Origin: Acidobacteriota bacterium
GTDB lineage: Bacteria > Acidobacteriota > Blastocatellia > UBA7656
Direction of reading: 5' to 3'
NCBI GenBank assembly: GCA_040755335.1
Contig: JBFMAU010000003.1
Span: 1 to 51,330 of the forward strand
Length of the DNA: 51,330 nucleotides
Shown here: positions 8,319 to 36,183 of the stretch, in pieces
Numbering within the stretch: the stretch's first letter is position 1
How the letters are laid out: every line of letters starts with the position of its first letter
The notes under the pieces: model-generated
Told to the model about the DNA's origin: nothing
Seen by the model: the letters and a program-made list of their open reading frames with translations, nothing else
The model's database searches: none
Program-made: the position numbers and the translations under genes

Positions 8319-9185
8319 TCAGATAGCGTTTAGGGTGACGGGAACGAGCGCGGGTTCCAGATCAGCGTGTGCGCCGATGGCTGCGTCTAGTTCATCCGCA
8401 AGATTGCCTCTCGCAGAAGAGAGCGAATGAAAATCGAACAACTTTCGATCCATCAACTGAGACGGGCTGACGTTGGCCAGCGCTCGGAGCATCGAGTTTC
8501 GTAATTCGGGAATCTCGCTTTCGAGTTCCCGGATCAGACGTTTGACGCGCTTGCGTTTCAAATTTTCCTGCGAGCCGCAAAGATCGCACGGGATGATGGG
8601 ATAACTTTGAGTCTCGGCGAAAGCCGCTATGTCGCGCTCCCACGAGTAAGCCAGAGGGCGTATGACCATATTGCGCCCGTCGTCGCTCCGCAGCGCGGGC
8701 GGCATAGCTTTGAGCGAGCCTGTGAAGAAGAGATTGAGCAGAAAGGTTTCGAGTATATCGTCAGCGTGATGGCCCAAGGCGATCTTCGAGCATCCCTCTT
8801 CGACCGCCGTGTTGTAGAGTATGCCGCGACGCAGTCTCGAACAAAGCGCGCAGGTGGTCTTCCCATCAGGCACGATCGCTTTGACTATCGAGTAAGTATC
8901 CTGCTCGATTATTCGATACGGCACTCGGATCGAAGAGAGATAATGGGGCAAAACGTCGGCGGGAAATCCGGGTTGTTTCTGGTCGAGATTGACCGCGAGC
9001 AACTCAAATCGGACAGGCGCGCGGCGTTGAAGATCAAGAAGAAGCGCGAGCAGAGTGTAGCTGTCTTTGCCGCCGCTGAGGCAGACCATCACGCGGTCGC
9101 CGTCTTCTATCATACGGAAATCGCCGATCGCGCGCCCCGCGCCGCGCAGAAGTTTTTGTTTCAGTCTTTCGCTTCTCTCAATCAT
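8319..9185 (-). CDS. ttcA: tRNA 2-thiocytidine(32) synthetase
   Basis: PP-loop [23 protein letters not shown] and [10 protein letters not shown] motifs. Confidence 0.95.
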
Positions 9186-30776: not shown

Positions 30777-31973
30777 TCAGCCCGCCAGGACGCGGCACAT
30801 GATCTCTATCCCAAGGGCGATTTTTTCAGGCGTTTCCTTCGAATAAGCGAGCCGCAGCGTATCGCCCCCGCTTCCGTCTACAAAGAAAGGGCGACCGGGG
30901 ACATACGCCACGCCTTCCTCAATAGCGCGAGGCAATGCATCCGTAGCATCGATTCCTTCAATTTGCATAAGGATGAAAAAGCCGCCAAGCGGACGAGTCC
31001 ACTTCGCTCCCCGTGGGGCGTGACGGTCGAGCGCATCGAGCATGGATTTGCAACGCAGATGGTAAAACTGGCGCATATAGGGGAGGCGATTTTCGATCAA
31101 CCCTGTTCGGGCGGCTTCGGCAACTATCGCCTGATCCAGCACGCTCGATGAAAGGTCGGCTCCTTCTTTGGCAAGCTCGCACCGGGCGGCAATCGGATCA
31201 GGCGCATACATCCACGCCGCTCTCAGCCCCGGCGCGAGGACTTTTGAAAAACTGCTGAGATAAATGACCCGTGAAGCGTCCATAGCCACGAGCGCATCAG
31301 GCCGCGCGCCGCCGTCGAAGTGCAATTCATAATAAGGATCGTCTTCGATGATCAGCAGGTCGTATTGTCGGGCGATAGCGATCAACTCCGCTCGCCGACT
31401 TTCTGAAAGAGTTACCCCGGATGGGTTCTGAAAATTGGGTATCGTGTAAATCAGCTTCACTCTCCGCCCTTCCGTTCGCAGACGGTCGAGGGTCTCGCGA
31501 AGATGCACGGTATCGATTCCCTCTTCATCCTGACGGACGCCAACCATCTCGGCCCCGGCGTTATGAAGCGCAATGATCCCGCCTATGTAACCGGGCAGCT
31601 CGACTATCGCCACATCCTTTGGATCGAGCAGCACGCGGGCCGCAAGGTCGAGTCCCTGCTGAGAACCTGTCGTAAGCTGCACGCCCGAAGGGGATGCTTC
31701 CCTCGCTCCGCGCGCGCGCATCGTTTCAGCCACATGTTCGACCAGAGACCGATTCCCCCGCGTCGGGCCATATTGCAAAGCCGTCGCGCCGCTTTCGCGA
31801 ATTACGCGAGCCGATATCTCAGCCAGTTCCTCAAGGGGAAATGTCTCGGCGCTTGGCGCTCCCGCCGCGAGCGAAATCACATTGCCGCGCGAAAGCAGCG
31901 CGGTGAGTTTACGAATATCGTTCGGCTTGAGCGACAGGCCGATCTTCGAGAGGCTGTCATTATAATCAATCAT
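30777..31973 (-). CDS. PLP-dependent class I aminotransferase (LysN/ARO8-like)
   Basis: LQYG, GSQQG, FQNPSG, IEDDPY and SFSKVLAPGLR motifs. Confidence 0.92.
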   Translation of the reverse strand: MIDYNDSLSKIGLSLKPNDIRKLTALLSRGNVISLAAGAPSAETFPLEELAEISARVIRESGATALQYGPTRGNRSLVEHVAETMRARGAREASPSGVQLTTGSQQGLDLAARVLLDPKDVAIVELPGYIGGIIALHNAGAEMVGVRQDEEGIDTVHLRETLDRLRTEGRRVKLIYTIPNFQNPSGVTLSESRRAELIAIARQYDLLIIEDDPYYELHFDGGARPDALVAMDASRVIYLSSFSKVLAPGLRAAWMYAPDPIAARCELAKEGADLSSSVLDQAIVAEAARTGLIENRLPYMRQFYHLRCKSMLDALDRHAPRGAKWTRPLGGFFILMQIEGIDATDALPRAIEEGVAYVPGRPFFVDGSGGDTLRLAYSKETPEKIALGIEIMCRVLAG

Positions 31974-31983
31974 TGGATTCTCG

Positions 31984-32493
31984 CTATTTCACATTGAACT
32001 CCAGATCGACCTGAAGGCTTGGTTGAGCCGGATCATTCGATTTTATCGTCACCGATTTGGTGTGCGGGCCGGGTGAGTTGCCTGTTTCGAGCTTGACCTT
32101 GATTGCGCCCGCCTTACCAGGCGGGAGGACTCGCGGGAAGTCCACAGCCGTGCATCCTCAGCTTGGAACGACCGATTCTATTTTCAAATCGGCCTTGCCC
32201 ATATTTTTAATCGCGATCGTTCGCACGATGCTTTTGCCCGCTCGCTGCTTCCCGAAATCTATTTTTCTGACCGGCACGAACAATTTCGGCTGAGGCCCCG
32301 TCGCCGCAGGCGCAGACGCAGGAGGAGCGGAAGCGACGACAGCGGAAGAGGTAGTGACAGGCGCGGGGGTATTATCAACCTGAGCCGCGGGCTGAGGCTT
32401 TTCGGCGGAGGATTCATCAGGCGCAGATGAACAACCGCTCATCAACGCAGAGGCGATGATCAAAACGCAAAACATCAGCAGTGCTTTTTTCAT
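31984..32493 (-). CDS. DUF1573-like Ig-fold lipoprotein with in-frame UGA at codon 112 (candidate selenoprotein, 169 aa)
   Basis: Lipobox LMSG-C21, Pro/Ala linker, IDFG...IKN.G.ADLKIESVVPS-(TGA 32160-32158)-GCTAVDFPRVLPPGKAGAIKVKLETG...KSVTIKSNDP...FNVK-TAG at 31984. Confidence 0.75.
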
Positions 32494-32529
32494 GGCCCGA
32501 ATAATTTACCACAAAAGCCGCCTGAGTCA

Positions 32530-32895
32530 TCAGCCCTCTTCGCTGGATACATCAAGCATTGCGACGGTCGCGCCCCAGCCTCCGGCTTCCATAGGCGCAT
32601 CAGTGAATGAAATGACGAACGGCGTGCGCGCGAGAATCGCCCGAACCATCTCTCTTTGAACGCATATCCCCTTGCCGTGAATTATTCGGACGTGTGAGAG
32701 ACGGCGACTGCGCGCCGATTGGAGAAAGTCTTCGACCACTGCTTTCACCTGACGGGGCGGTATCGAGTGCAGATCGATCACGTCCGTCAATTCGATCACT
32801 ACAGGATCGGGAAACGGGTTCATCAGATCGATGGATTCGTCCTCCTCGTCCTCTTCTTTCTGCGGGCGGCGAAAGAGTCTCAACAGATAATCCAT
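32530..32895 (-). CDS. Smr/MutS2 C-terminal domain protein
   Basis: IDLH, RIIHGKG and GGWGATV motifs. Start at ATG 32895. Confidence 0.9.
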   Translation of the reverse strand: MDYLLRLFRRPQKEEDEEDESIDLMNPFPDPVVIELTDVIDLHSIPPRQVKAVVEDFLQSARSRRLSHVRIIHGKGICVQREMVRAILARTPFVISFTDAPMEAGGWGATVAMLDVSSEEG

Positions 32896-32940
32896 GGCCA
32901 AAAGATTATTCGCCCGCGCTCGTCGCCTCAAGCCATGGAT

Positions 32941-33167: not shown

Positions 33168-33959
33168 ATGATTTTATTTCGCCTCTCCTTTTTCATGACC
33201 TTCATACTGGCATTCGGCGGCGATCAGTCTTCGCAAACCCCGAAGGCGAGGCAGAACTATTTTGCCGTCGTAAAAGCCTCTCCTGAGAGGCAGGCAAAAG
33301 TTGAGCGCGAATGGAGACGCATGCTCGAAGCTTACAACGCTCCGCCATCGAAACCCGATCTTCATCCCATAACCTGCGCCCCGCGCTCGCTGGCCGAAGC
33401 GGCGGGCAAAATAGATATAATCTCGAAGCGAACGGAGCAGGACGGAGAATTGCGCTCGGCAGTCAAACAATTCATTGATCGCTGGCGAGACCTCCTCGGC
33501 GCAGACCCCGATTCGGTTTCGCTCATAAGCGTCACAGACGCGGGCGACGCTCGACGATTGATTTTCAAACAGGCCAATTATCCTTTTCCCGTCGCGGGCA
33601 ATTTCGGAGAGATGACTCTAGTCGTCAGCCCGGAGGGGCGACTGCTTCAACTTGAAGATCGTTTCATCCCGGTCGTCGAAACGCCCGTGCGACCGGAATA
33701 TCAAAGAGAGGACGCGCGAAAACGAGTGGCTGGCCGCTCATTCGCTTATCGCGACGCGGCAGGAAAAGAGCAGAGAGAGCAGATCGCCGAGGATCAAATC
33801 GCGGTCAAACAATTAGTCATTCTGCCAATAGAAAAAGGCGACCGTATTGAAGTCCGTCTGGCGTGGGAGATAATCGCGGGGGGCGCGCTTTCGTGGACTG
33901 TCTACATAGACGCCATCACGGGCGAAGAGTTGCAGGTGACGCAGAACTTTCAGACCTGA
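33168..33959 (+). CDS. Exported hypothetical protein with a PepSY/propeptide-like C-terminus
   Basis: Signal peptide, F.Q....PV (FTP-like), LAWEI...W.VYIDAITGE (PepSY-like). No catalytic domain. Confidence 0.65.
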   Translation: MILFRLSFFMTFILAFGGDQSSQTPKARQNYFAVVKASPERQAKVEREWRRMLEAYNAPPSKPDLHPITCAPRSLAEAAGKIDIISKRTEQDGELRSAVKQFIDRWRDLLGADPDSVSLISVTDAGDARRLIFKQANYPFPVAGNFGEMTLVVSPEGRLLQLEDRFIPVVETPVRPEYQREDARKRVAGRSFAYRDAAGKEQREQIAEDQIAVKQLVILPIEKGDRIEVRLAWEIIAGGALSWTVYIDAITGEELQVTQNFQT

Positions 33960-34011: not shown

Positions 34012-36183
34012 ATGGAAACAGTAATAACACGGGACTCGGACGTAATAAGAGAATATCTGGACGTGATGGACGCTCGCGAGCAGAGCCTTTCGCCTTTCGC
34101 TCGTCTGGTCGCCACTATCAAACTCGCCCGCCTTCGCCGCGAGCTTGCCACTACCGCTATAGAAACGACTGAGGATGATCTGGCAGCGCTGCGCCGCAGA
34201 ATCGATGAGCGAACCAGTAGCTCTCTGCTGCGCAGGTTTCAGGCGAGACCTCTCGGCGCGCGGCTGTCGATTTTTCTCCTCATCCTGCTCGGCCAGCAGG
34301 CGGCGCTTCTTCTCATATTTTTCGCCACATGGCTTTTCGTGAAATTCGCTCCCGTAGATAAACGGTGGAATCCTGCGCTTCCAAACGAGCAGCCTGCCTT
34401 TCTCTACGTTTTTCTTTTCTTCTTCTTCTTCGCCACTCCGATGATGGCGCTGCTCGCAGTTTTCGGCGGCAGGTTCTTTCGCTCGTGGCGAGCGACCGCG
34501 CCTGCGACCGCGCTTCTGGTGTTGATGTCGGCAGCAGTCGCTTTCGTGGCCTTGCCGAGCGCGCAACTCGGCAAGGTCTTCAAATCGCTCGAGCAGGTCG
34601 TCAATCCCGCGCTTCGCACTTCATCGACGGATCAGTTCATCAGAAAGCGCGCGCTCGGAGGTATGGAATCCTATCGCCAGTGGATCGAAGCCAACTCGAT
34701 TCTCAAAGACGCGCGACTTCGCAGCGATTACGAAAGCTATTTGCGAACGGGGCCGGGTCGCTGGATCACTTCGCGCTTCGATTCGCAAACAGACGCGGCG
34801 TGGGTCACTTCGATGGATGTGATGGAAGAATATCTCGACCAGCATCAGGACGCAGAAGGATTTCGCCAATGGCTGAAATACTACTTCGACCGCAATCGCA
34901 TTTACTCCGAAGAGCGCATCGATCAGGAGATTTCTTCTATCACCGCCGACGCGCAGATGATAGGCGTCTGGCAGGTCGAACCCTTTCTGCGCGAGCGCGA
35001 CGAACGACTCTACCGCGCTCATTTCGGAACGGTCAGCCTGAGAATGAAACGCATCGCGCTGATAGGGCTTGGAGCTTTGCTGCTGCTGTTTCTCCTGGTT
35101 TGTCTCGTAAGGCTCGCTTTCGCGTCTACGAGAAGAAGGCGAGTCGCGCCTCCGATTGTAGAATCCGAGGAAACTCCAATAGCTCCCTCATCGCGCAACG
35201 ATTCATTTCCCGAACGACCGTACATCAAGACGATGCCTTTCTTCGACGCGCCTTTCGAAATACTCTCGCGCGTTCATAAATCGTTTCTTCGCATAGCGGT
35301 CTTCGCCATCGTTTTCGTCTTCCTGTTCTGGATAGCCGTCTACGGTTCTGCTCTGGCTTCGACGCCCGTAAATCCTCAGTCGCAACTCGCGCTGATGCGC
35401 AGCTACATTTTCTTCCTGTCGGATGACGAGGCGAAGCCTGCGGAGTCGACTGGCGACCCGCGCATCGCGGCGATGTCTGAAAAAATCGATGAAGGCGAGT
35501 ATCAGTACACAAAGAAGCTCAAGGCGCAGGATCAGACAATCGCCAGTCACATATCAGATATCGCGCAGCTCAAAACTTTTTCGATGCAGTTTCAGCAGAC
35601 CACTTCCACGCTTCCCACCCAGCTTGCCGAACTGAGTTCGCGCGCTTCGGCGGCGGAATCGCGCGTGGGCGAAGTGATGGGGCAGGTTTCGGGGGTCAAG
35701 CAGAAGGCCGACGCGCTCGAAGGCCAGCTTGCGTCGAAACTCGGACAGGTCGAAACCCGCACGGCGCGCGCCAGCGATCAGATAGGCAAAATCGAAGAGC
35801 AGGCTTCTCTGCTTGCGACCCGCACCGAAGCGCTCGAAAAAGAGCTTGACCGCCGCGCCCGCCAGATCGAAGCGCGAACGGAAGAGTTGGGCGAACGCAC
35901 TGCCGCGCTCAACGAACGCGAGGAGCGCATCGCCCGCTTTCAGCGCATAGCCTTCAGAGCCATACTTTCAGGCATCACATCTGATGTAGATGAGCTTGAC
36001 CGCCGCTCGGCAAGCGGGTCTTCGCGCGCCGAGGTTCAACTCCGTGGCGACGCGCTGGCGAAGCGAATCAGCGCGATGACGAAAGAGTTGAGCGAGATCA
36101 ACACCGATCAGGCGAAACAGTTCATCACGGAGCTTGATGAATTGAAGAAGAGACTGGATCAGATACTCGCTCGCGCGAAATAA
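34012..36183 (+). CDS. Membrane protein (~5 TMs) with a long C-terminal coiled coil
   Basis: Hydrophobic segments followed by a ~230-aa heptad region. Confidence 0.75.
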   Translation: METVITRDSDVIREYLDVMDAREQSLSPFARLVATIKLARLRRELATTAIETTEDDLAALRRRIDERTSSSLLRRFQARPLGARLSIFLLILLGQQAALLLIFFATWLFVKFAPVDKRWNPALPNEQPAFLYVFLFFFFFATPMMALLAVFGGRFFRSWRATAPATALLVLMSAAVAFVALPSAQLGKVFKSLEQVVNPALRTSSTDQFIRKRALGGMESYRQWIEANSILKDARLRSDYESYLRTGPGRWITSRFDSQTDAAWVTSMDVMEEYLDQHQDAEGFRQWLKYYFDRNRIYSEERIDQEISSITADAQMIGVWQVEPFLRERDERLYRAHFGTVSLRMKRIALIGLGALLLLFLLVCLVRLAFASTRRRRVAPPIVESEETPIAPSSRNDSFPERPYIKTMPFFDAPFEILSRVHKSFLRIAVFAIVFVFLFWIAVYGSALASTPVNPQSQLALMRSYIFFLSDDEAKPAESTGDPRIAAMSEKIDEGEYQYTKKLKAQDQTIASHISDIAQLKTFSMQFQQTTSTLPTQLAELSSRASAAESRVGEVMGQVSGVKQKADALEGQLASKLGQVETRTARASDQIGKIEEQASLLATRTEALEKELDRRARQIEARTEELGERTAALNEREERIARFQRIAFRAILSGITSDVDELDRRSASGSSRAEVQLRGDALAKRISAMTKELSEINTDQAKQFITELDELKKRLDQILARAK

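Follow-up and report, generated by a model that had tools for sequence, protein, structure and literature searches.

Positions 32493-31984 (minus strand) of the 51,330-nucleotide stretch of Acidobacteriota DNA analysed here (the window: GenBank assembly GCA_040755335.1, contig JBFMAU010000003.1, positions 1 to 51,330) hold a reading frame of 169 codons with an in-frame TGA at codon 112. Comparison with its relatives makes it very probable that this is a single intact gene, not a truncated one, for an exported lipoprotein of 169 residues with selenocysteine (Sec) inserted at codon 112, a UGA; the narrower proposition, that Sec decoding takes place at this UGA in a real selenoprotein gene, comes close to certainty on the same comparisons. 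The gene is a member of a known family, the DUF1573 selenoproteins, within which it amounts to a new subfamily; it is no new kind of gene. What is new is the lipoprotein subfamily of the Blastocatellia, the occurrence of 1-4 matches to a model of the element per genome (3 such genes in the window's own), and a two-hairpin Sec insertion sequence (SECIS) with a GGU placed on the Gly codon of the domain's 'PG' motif. The evidence consists of direct observations on the structure of the gene, the conservation of its UGA, covariation in the RNA that follows, the Sec machinery of the genome and the fold of the encoded domain.

The frame opens with an ATG at 32493-32491 and meets the TGA at 32160-32158; 57 sense codons follow in the same frame (GCTAVDFPRVLPPGK...LEFNVK) and end at a TAG at 31986-31984, just before the next gene. 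These coordinates reproduce those of the original prediction, which had read the frame past the TGA over exactly this distance. The Pfam domain DUF1573 (PF07610) matches residues 76-158 of the read-through product (66.9 bits, E 1.7e-18, cutoff 26.1) and bridges the TGA, and a whole domain exists only in the 169-residue product: neither the 111-residue stub that ends at the TGA nor the 53-residue open reading frame downstream has one. The UGA (32158-32160, minus strand) codes for the first residue of a U-G-C motif at residues 112-114, with Cys114 encoded by TGC at 32154-32152. The original prediction had placed the TGA at the first Cys position of a DUF1573-like Ig domain, and so it lies, with homologs carrying Cys at that position. 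The complete selenoprotein coding sequence thus read spans 31984-32493 on the minus strand, with its frame kept in 30 ortholog loci.

Searched in six frames, 60 relatives gave a match in every one of the 36 same-family genomes; 30 ortholog loci were extracted, the window included, and L163 and L164 were added later. TGA stands at the same codon in 29 of the 30 loci, the remaining one (L040) having TGC. Counted by genome, the 36 same-family relatives divide into 29 with TGA, 2 with TGC (L040 and L163) and 5 without a whole ortholog by this query; L164 has TGA. The surrounding motif in the orthologs is P-[SG]-U-G-C-T-[AT]-V-[DN]-F-P-K-V-L. The frame itself terminates at an ordinary TGA, 57-62 codons downstream of the Sec TGA, in 19 of the 30 orthologs, and TGA is therefore not a reassigned codon in these organisms. 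U112 aligns with Cys in L040, in L163, in the protein relatives P0002, P0003, P0006-P0009 and P0012 and in others, and also in 41 loci of other phyla, a sample that is biased in that the scan pattern requires Cys codons; the 39 Acidobacteriota loci returned by the same pattern scan come largely from genomes already used and are not independent. Loss of the Sec trait was considered as the origin of the two Cys orthologs and rejected: both of their genomes (G013 and G004) have SelA.

Purifying selection acts on the frame downstream of the TGA. Nei-Gojobori proportions over all 435 pairs of orthologs give pN 0.30 and pS 0.68 for the 36 codons before the TGA, and pN 0.25 and pS 0.75 for codons 19-55 after it. 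Codons 1-18 after the TGA stand apart with pN 0.10 and pS 0.375: synonymous change is halved, relative to the upstream codons, exactly over the hairpins described next, as is expected of an RNA structure overlying a coding sequence.

The RNA that follows the UGA contains two hairpins in tandem. Hairpin 1, at +15 to +31 after the UGA (32127-32143, minus strand), has a 6-bp stem, GGACUU/GAGUCC, and a 5-nt loop; hairpin 2, at +33 to +50 (32108-32125, minus strand), has a GC-rich stem of 7 bp and a GGUA tetraloop at 32118-32115. RNAalifold recovers both unaided from the 29 Sec orthologs. The resulting 13-pair structure is paired in 97.3% of the cells of that alignment, with both sides changed at 4 of the pairs, and its covariation score of 0.162 compares with 0.068 in shuffles (0/500 reach it) and with 0.040 or less in slid controls; one pair of hairpin 2, 47-60, is CG in 13 orthologs, GC in 10 and AU in 5. 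Constraint on the protein alone does not suffice to generate this pattern, because the compensations tie base 2 of Pro, Arg or Gln codons to base 3 of Ala or Val codons. Extension to 64 sequences of four paralog classes (described below) raises the score to 0.295 against 0.090 in shuffles (0/500) and at most 0.081 in slid controls, with double changes in six pairs and 90 cells, 24 and 28 of them in pairs 50-63 and 51-62 of hairpin 2. Pair 30-46 of hairpin 1 is GC in 30 sequences of this alignment, CG in 24 and UA in 7, the class 3 sequences being misaligned at hairpin 1 and scored there as unpaired. The mean folding energy of the 45-nt segment is -18.1 kcal/mol in 70 Sec forms versus -9.1 in 43 Cys forms whose GC content is similar, and -12.5 and -4.1 kcal/mol in the in-family Cys orthologs; the sequences are related and not independent, so that this comparison and the shuffle controls overstate significance, while the direction is clear. 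In L040 and L163, both of them Cys orthologs, hairpin 1 is disrupted.

At the tip of hairpin 2, the GGU doubles as the Gly codon of the invariant 'PG' of DUF1573, and CC[UC]GG[UGC] is found in 70/70 Sec forms. The apical loop of the bacterial SECIS has a conserved G, as described in print (PMC1976440). The tandem layout predicted here likewise has a stem-loop 3' of the UGA with a G in its apical loop. Hairpin 2 is the likely core of the element because of its G-first loop and its conservation, which is wider than that of hairpin 1. The likeness to the bacterial SECIS accordingly extends to a structure within the coding sequence right after the UGA, a GC-rich stem and a small G-first apical loop; the differences are that two conserved hairpins stand here in tandem, that the loop lies 39 nt from the UGA, and that the element is without a match in Rfam. 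The placement of both hairpins, with the GGUA loop on the second, agrees with the original prediction, which had offered them as SECIS candidates. Their being stem-loops that are conserved and covary bears this out in part; what does not stand is their treatment as alternatives, since both are conserved together. As a structure that is shaped by a peptide motif and in turn shapes it, the two-hairpin element is a clean example of its kind, and it may help in widening the models of the bacterial SECIS.

The genome of which the window is a part, a metagenome bin of 808 contigs and 7.85 Mb that is 98% complete, has the machinery for Sec insertion. There is one tRNA-Sec, found by ARAGORN and matched by RF01852 at 71.2 bits (above cutoff), and it is the only UGA-reading tRNA that ARAGORN reports; SelA, SelB and SelD score 577.5, 378.7 and 360.3 bits, all over their curated cutoffs. 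The SelD gene (G000:C94:875-1804, plus strand, locus L018) has a single TGA in frame, close to its N-terminus, and behind it a GC stem with GGU at its top, 32 nt past the UGA; SelD of this organism is probably a selenoprotein as well, to judge by this arrangement. The original prediction, which took the gene to encode an exported, lipid-anchored selenoprotein, is thus supported by the conserved TGA, by selection on both sides of it, by Sec/Cys pairs, by the machinery for Sec and by a covarying stem-loop. The tRNA complement of the bin has some peculiarities of its own: it comprises 94 tRNA genes, many of them duplicates; contigs C439 and C634 carry two 96-nt tRNA-like genes to which ARAGORN assigns a four-base 'anticodon' (ataa), and weak matches to the tRNA-Sec model cluster on the same two contigs, in what resembles a tRNA array or a duplicated segment.

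SelB carrying Sec-tRNA(Sec) would be recruited by the mRNA structure just past the UGA, which is the standard bacterial route and the most likely one here. The recruiting structure would be the two adjacent hairpins, and we infer that hairpin 2, with its GC-rich stem and GGU(A/C) loop, is the likely SelB-binding core, with hairpin 1 a structured spacer that occupies the intervening stretch and probably fixes how far hairpin 2 lies from the UGA. The mature protein would consist of a lipid anchor, a linker that is flexible and rich in Pro and Ala, and a single DUF1573 Ig-like domain. Its putative redox centre, Sec112 and Cys114, would lie outside the cytoplasm, where a loop of the beta-sandwich passes into a strand.

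Several observations weigh against this reading. The bin has a contamination of 5.4% and its Sec genes lie on other contigs than the window; the presence of SelA over cutoff in 61 of 61 relatives, both genomes with Cys orthologs included, makes Sec use a trait of the lineage and contamination an unlikely explanation. In the window itself, the 61 nt past the UGA fold no better than shuffled sequence (-24.2 kcal/mol, z -0.91, with 41/200 shuffles at least as good), so that the folding energy of the single sequence is not evidence and the case for the element rests on comparison, among sequences whose relatedness has been mentioned. No Rfam family fits the element: the whole window gives 0 matches at gathering thresholds, and a search of 32050-32200 at E up to 10 brings up only noise (mir-1013 and sR22). 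The GGU loop begins 39 nt past the UGA, farther than the 32 nt of this genome's SelD, and this distance reportedly exceeds the range of the bSECISearch model. The public sequencing runs listed are of partial DNA and none is of RNA; no contig from them spans 32158-32160, and they have no bearing on the TGA or on expression. As for the chemistry of the protein, a nearly invariant His (in 90% of sequences) is Lys in 3/30 orthologs, leaving no third ligand evident at the site, and the Smr-domain and aminotransferase genes on either side give no pointer to redox or metal chemistry.

The N-terminus of the protein has a predicted signal peptide, residues 1-20 (32434-32493, minus strand), that leads to a lipobox Cys, Cys21 (32433-32431), in the sequence L-M-S-G-C. 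A lipobox is present in 27/27 orthologs with a whole N-terminus, 26/30 by regular expression and one more, L048, with an LMAGC that the filter missed; the remaining 3/30 lose their N-terminus at contig ends, and the lipoprotein assignment is by regular expression only. A signal peptide joined to a lipobox Cys is the signature of a bacterial lipoprotein, and the protein would accordingly be lipidated. From the anchor to the domain runs a low-complexity linker rich in Pro, Ala, Ser and Thr (32284-32430, minus strand), which across the orthologs measures 44-104 residues and is 76-93% P/A/S/T/Q/N/G/E.

The domain (32020-32268, minus strand, with the one TGA inside) is an Ig-like beta-sandwich. Its AlphaFold2 (AF2) model is a sandwich of seven strands with a pLDDT of 93.3 and a pTM of 0.81, in which U-G-C lies at the junction of the domain strands 38-45 and 49-53. 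Foldseek finds as best match 2qsv (E 8.4e-7, TMq 0.78), a Porphyromonas gingivalis protein of unknown function, together with the PapD-like domain of HYDIN (2e6j, 0.78) and VesB (4lk4, 0.70). A profile search of the PDB gives only weak matches to Hydin and 2qsv (the latter at E 0.0014), and the single domain sequence finds no match in the PDB at E up to 10. The fold is therefore that of 2qsv, of the HYDIN/PapD-like/ASH domains and of the Ig domains of VesB and VesC; these proteins differ from the domain in sequence (8-20% identity), are not selenoproteins by title, and suggest no function for the CxC site.

We infer that the Sec/Cys pair is the active site of the protein, a redox-active selenol/thiol (selenenylsulfide) centre outside the cytoplasm. 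Placed at i and i+2 where a strand begins, the two residues face the same side, so that U-x-C could close a selenenylsulfide. Peptides with CxC have been reported to mimic protein disulfide isomerase, and an adjacent Cys-Sec pair is used by the thioredoxin reductase of mammals; in view of these precedents, both U-x-C and the U-C variant found among paralogs fit a redox centre. Retention of UxC in place of CxC throughout a whole bacterial family and in several paralog classes is an observation of wider import: DUF1573 is a large family of unknown function, and repeated upgrading of its CxC to Sec singles this site out as the part of the domain where the chemistry takes place, which makes it a starting point for experiments.

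The principal rival to a redox centre leaves Sec decoding untouched and assigns U-x-C to the binding of a soft metal or metalloid (Cu(I), Hg, Cd or Zn), without redox cycling, in an extracytoplasmic metal chaperone or scavenger. Export of the protein is compatible with that function, and the spacing of U to C varies by class (U-G-C, U-A-C, U-C), so that a fixed ring geometry is not required. Several of the prokaryotic selenoproteins with UxxC that two reviews list are related to metals, namely mercuric transport proteins, a cation ATPase, CobW-like and YHS proteins (PMC9312934, PMC13188914), whereas the abstract of the first of these describes most prokaryotic selenoproteins as redox proteins. 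Metal-resistance and transport genes are lacking among the neighbours, and the replacement of His by Lys referred to above deprives the site of an invariant third ligand. Metal binding is a possible function, and on balance less likely than not.

A second alternative accepts Sec insertion and makes the UGA mainly a selenium-dependent switch, with the 111-residue anchor-plus-linker stub itself functional or regulatory when selenium is scarce. Sec insertion does compete with termination in bacteria, and gene callers already store a 111-residue form (P0004), but the stub stops inside the beta-sandwich after ~36 residues of the domain, which cannot fold as such; selection past the UGA is as strong as before it, and close relatives with Cys in place of Sec make the full-length protein only. 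A switch of this kind is improbable. Read-through of the UGA without Sec, whether by near-cognate Trp, Cys or Arg insertion boosted by the hairpins or by a reassigned code, is even less probable. It is favoured by the fact that structures downstream of a stop codon can stimulate read-through in general, and by the protein relative P0010, which has W at the Sec position (S-P-S-W-G-C-T) and may reflect either another code used by the gene caller or a true TGG. It has to contend with TGA as the ordinary stop of most orthologs, with a tRNA-Sec as the sole UGA-reading tRNA reported, with the classical Sec/Cys pattern of an UGA that aligns with Cys in homologs, with Sec machinery in this genome and SelA in all of the relatives, and with a similar GGU-topped stem after the UGA of SelD itself. 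The alternative that the original prediction had kept in reserve, a nonsense mutation (hence a pseudogene) or a fault of assembly or sequencing at a TGC or TGT Cys codon, is refuted by conservation: Cys orthologs do lie one base change away (L040, L163, P0002 and P0003), but of 31 orthologs in relatives, from separate assemblies, 29 have the TGA at this codon, and it is followed by sequence under purifying selection and by a covarying RNA structure found only in the TGA forms.

With UGA 112 read as Sec, the gene takes its place in a family that has been on record for some time. OS_HP2 entered the literature in 2007, as a then new family of selenoproteins with 2 genes from Olavius symbionts (Zhang & Gladyshev, PMC1976440); the text of the 2008 analysis of the GOS metagenomes equates it with pfam07610 and its UxC motif and counts 2 Sec and 354 Cys sequences (PMC2398784), and reviews list in their texts a DUF1573 selenoprotein, PF07610, with the motif UGC (PMC9312934, PMC13188914). 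As far as these early texts go, the original members come from deltaproteobacterial worm symbionts and ocean metagenomes (PMC1976440, PMC2398784). The gene in the window has the two features by which the reviews list the family, a PF07610 domain and a predicted Sec in a U-G-C motif, and it shares with DUF1573/OS_HP2 the placement of Sec at the first Cys of UxC/UGC, the abundance of Cys homologs and the lack of a known function. It differs from OS_HP2 as curated in its score: its best NCBIfam match, NF041425 ('OS_HP2 family (seleno)protein'), is at 77.1 bits, under the curated cutoff of 100, and the gene is for that reason filed here under the broader heading of DUF1573 selenoproteins with UGC and not under NF041425. 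All of the Blastocatellia classes tested are likewise under 100, at 39.0-89.3 bits (the Cys orthologs at 73.4-74.5).

The original prediction had considered an exported, lipid-anchored selenoprotein of this type to be unusual, and in this it went too far, DUF1573 proteins with UGC/UxC being already listed as OS_HP2 and a family of seleno-lipoproteins being already curated. The latter, the Rcas_1661 family thioredoxin-like (seleno)lipoprotein (NF041057), is a lipid-anchored bacterial selenoprotein and as such a precedent for an exported one. It is unlike the protein considered here in that no real homology connects the two (12.8 bits, E 0.064, cutoff 190) and in being thioredoxin-like, by name, in place of an Ig-like sandwich. 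In the literature texts (figures and supplements aside), nothing turned up on DUF1573/OS_HP2 members from Acidobacteriota, on lipoprotein forms or on the family's SECIS, and the text of a 2026 review makes no mention of Acidobacteriota, Blastocatellia, the periplasm, signal peptides or secretion.

The gene is not the only one of its type in these genomes. Relatives have further DUF1573 genes with a TGA: class 2 (~360-390 residues, U-G-C), class 2b (U-G-C-E-V; a variant, L149 in G018:C90, has U-A-C) and class 3 (~420 residues, in which C comes right after U and 'PG' is preceded by an additional codon). All of these classes have the identical two-hairpin layout on different stem sequences. Their distribution was followed with a covariance model, R1, that comprises the UGA and the hairpins; R1 matches under about 45 bits include Cys paralogs, so that the counts per genome are upper bounds for Sec genes. 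The window's own genome has 3 copies. The gene under discussion scores 84.6 bits; a class 2 paralog on C164 (G000:C164:8556-9629, plus strand, L022/L173), of ~357 residues and with U-G-C, an in-frame TGA and the two-hairpin element, scores 82.6; and a class 3 paralog on C258 (G000:C258 ~8558-8641, minus strand, L174), with an in-frame TGA, Sec directly followed by Cys and the two-hairpin element, scores 41. Each of the same-family genomes (36/36) has 1-4 matches. In the other families of the class the matches are uneven (f2 0/5, f3 0/1, f4 0/5, f5 4/5, f6 0/4, f7 1/1, f8 0/3), and an even sample of the phylum has them in 10/151 genomes, the window's own counted. Three loci checked in other families of Acidobacteriota have the in-frame TGA in U-G-C and keep hairpin 2. 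At a locus in one such family (L178, in G063:C41), Sec- and Cys-form DUF1573 genes occur together, and a hairpin CCCGCC-UGGUCA-GGUGGG is found in the Sec copy only.

The orthologs are labelled Blastocatellia (Acidobacteriota) in their records, with a few labels that differ. L057, L064, L078 and L079, clear orthologs at 64-80% identity (best segment; L057 at 80%), are labelled 'uncultured Clostridia bacterium', while the entries next to them carry the label Blastocatellia; these are probably mislabels by the submitters. The full-length relatives in a large public collection of proteins are Cys forms, at up to 75% identity, and have K-S-I or K-S-L for the K-V-L that encodes the 3' arm of hairpin 1 in Sec forms. 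The Sec forms, that of the window among them, are stored in public protein sets as stubs of 107-111 residues devoid of the domain. With stubs on deposit and the curated NCBIfam model scoring them under its cutoff, a whole set of selenoproteins has been missed in a widespread phylum of soil bacteria.

A broader proposition can be put forward tentatively, and with less than even confidence, on the strength of these sequence comparisons: that soil Acidobacteriota, and one family of the Blastocatellia in particular, keep a small set of exported Ig-fold selenoproteins with U-G-C, U-A-C or U-C centres, all of them made with one bipartite SECIS that is built on Pro-Gly codons. They might then constitute an undescribed extracytoplasmic selenol system for redox or metal chemistry, and their SECIS, with its tandem hairpins and long spacing, a distinct class that lies outside Rfam and, reportedly, outside the bSECISearch consensus.

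The surroundings of the gene give no lead to its function. Upstream is a gene for an Smr-domain protein (32530-32931, minus strand; PF01713, 66.6 bits), with a similar sequence upstream in L054; beside it, two open reading frames on the plus strand, 33168-33959 and 34012-36183 (263 and 723 residues), match no Pfam family at E up to 1e-5. Downstream, a class I/II aminotransferase gene (30777-31973, minus strand; PF00155, 120 bits) starts 10 nt past the TAG. The aminotransferase follows the ortholog at many loci (L032-L034, L043, L045, L046, L053 and L054), so that synteny is kept, and it is probably co-transcribed with the selenoprotein gene.

An extended -10-like motif, TGnTAAATT (32503-32512, minus strand), ends 9 nt ahead of the ATG and is conserved in the orthologs: in at least 20 of 26 the word TGnTAAATTAT stops 6-9 nt short of the ATG, and in others it is displaced by the choice of start. 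A consensus promoter scan did not list the motif, the scan for promoters and terminators being at chance level. By its position it may be the promoter of an mRNA that has no leader or almost none. Several orthologs also have a TTGCAC-like word ~17 nt upstream.

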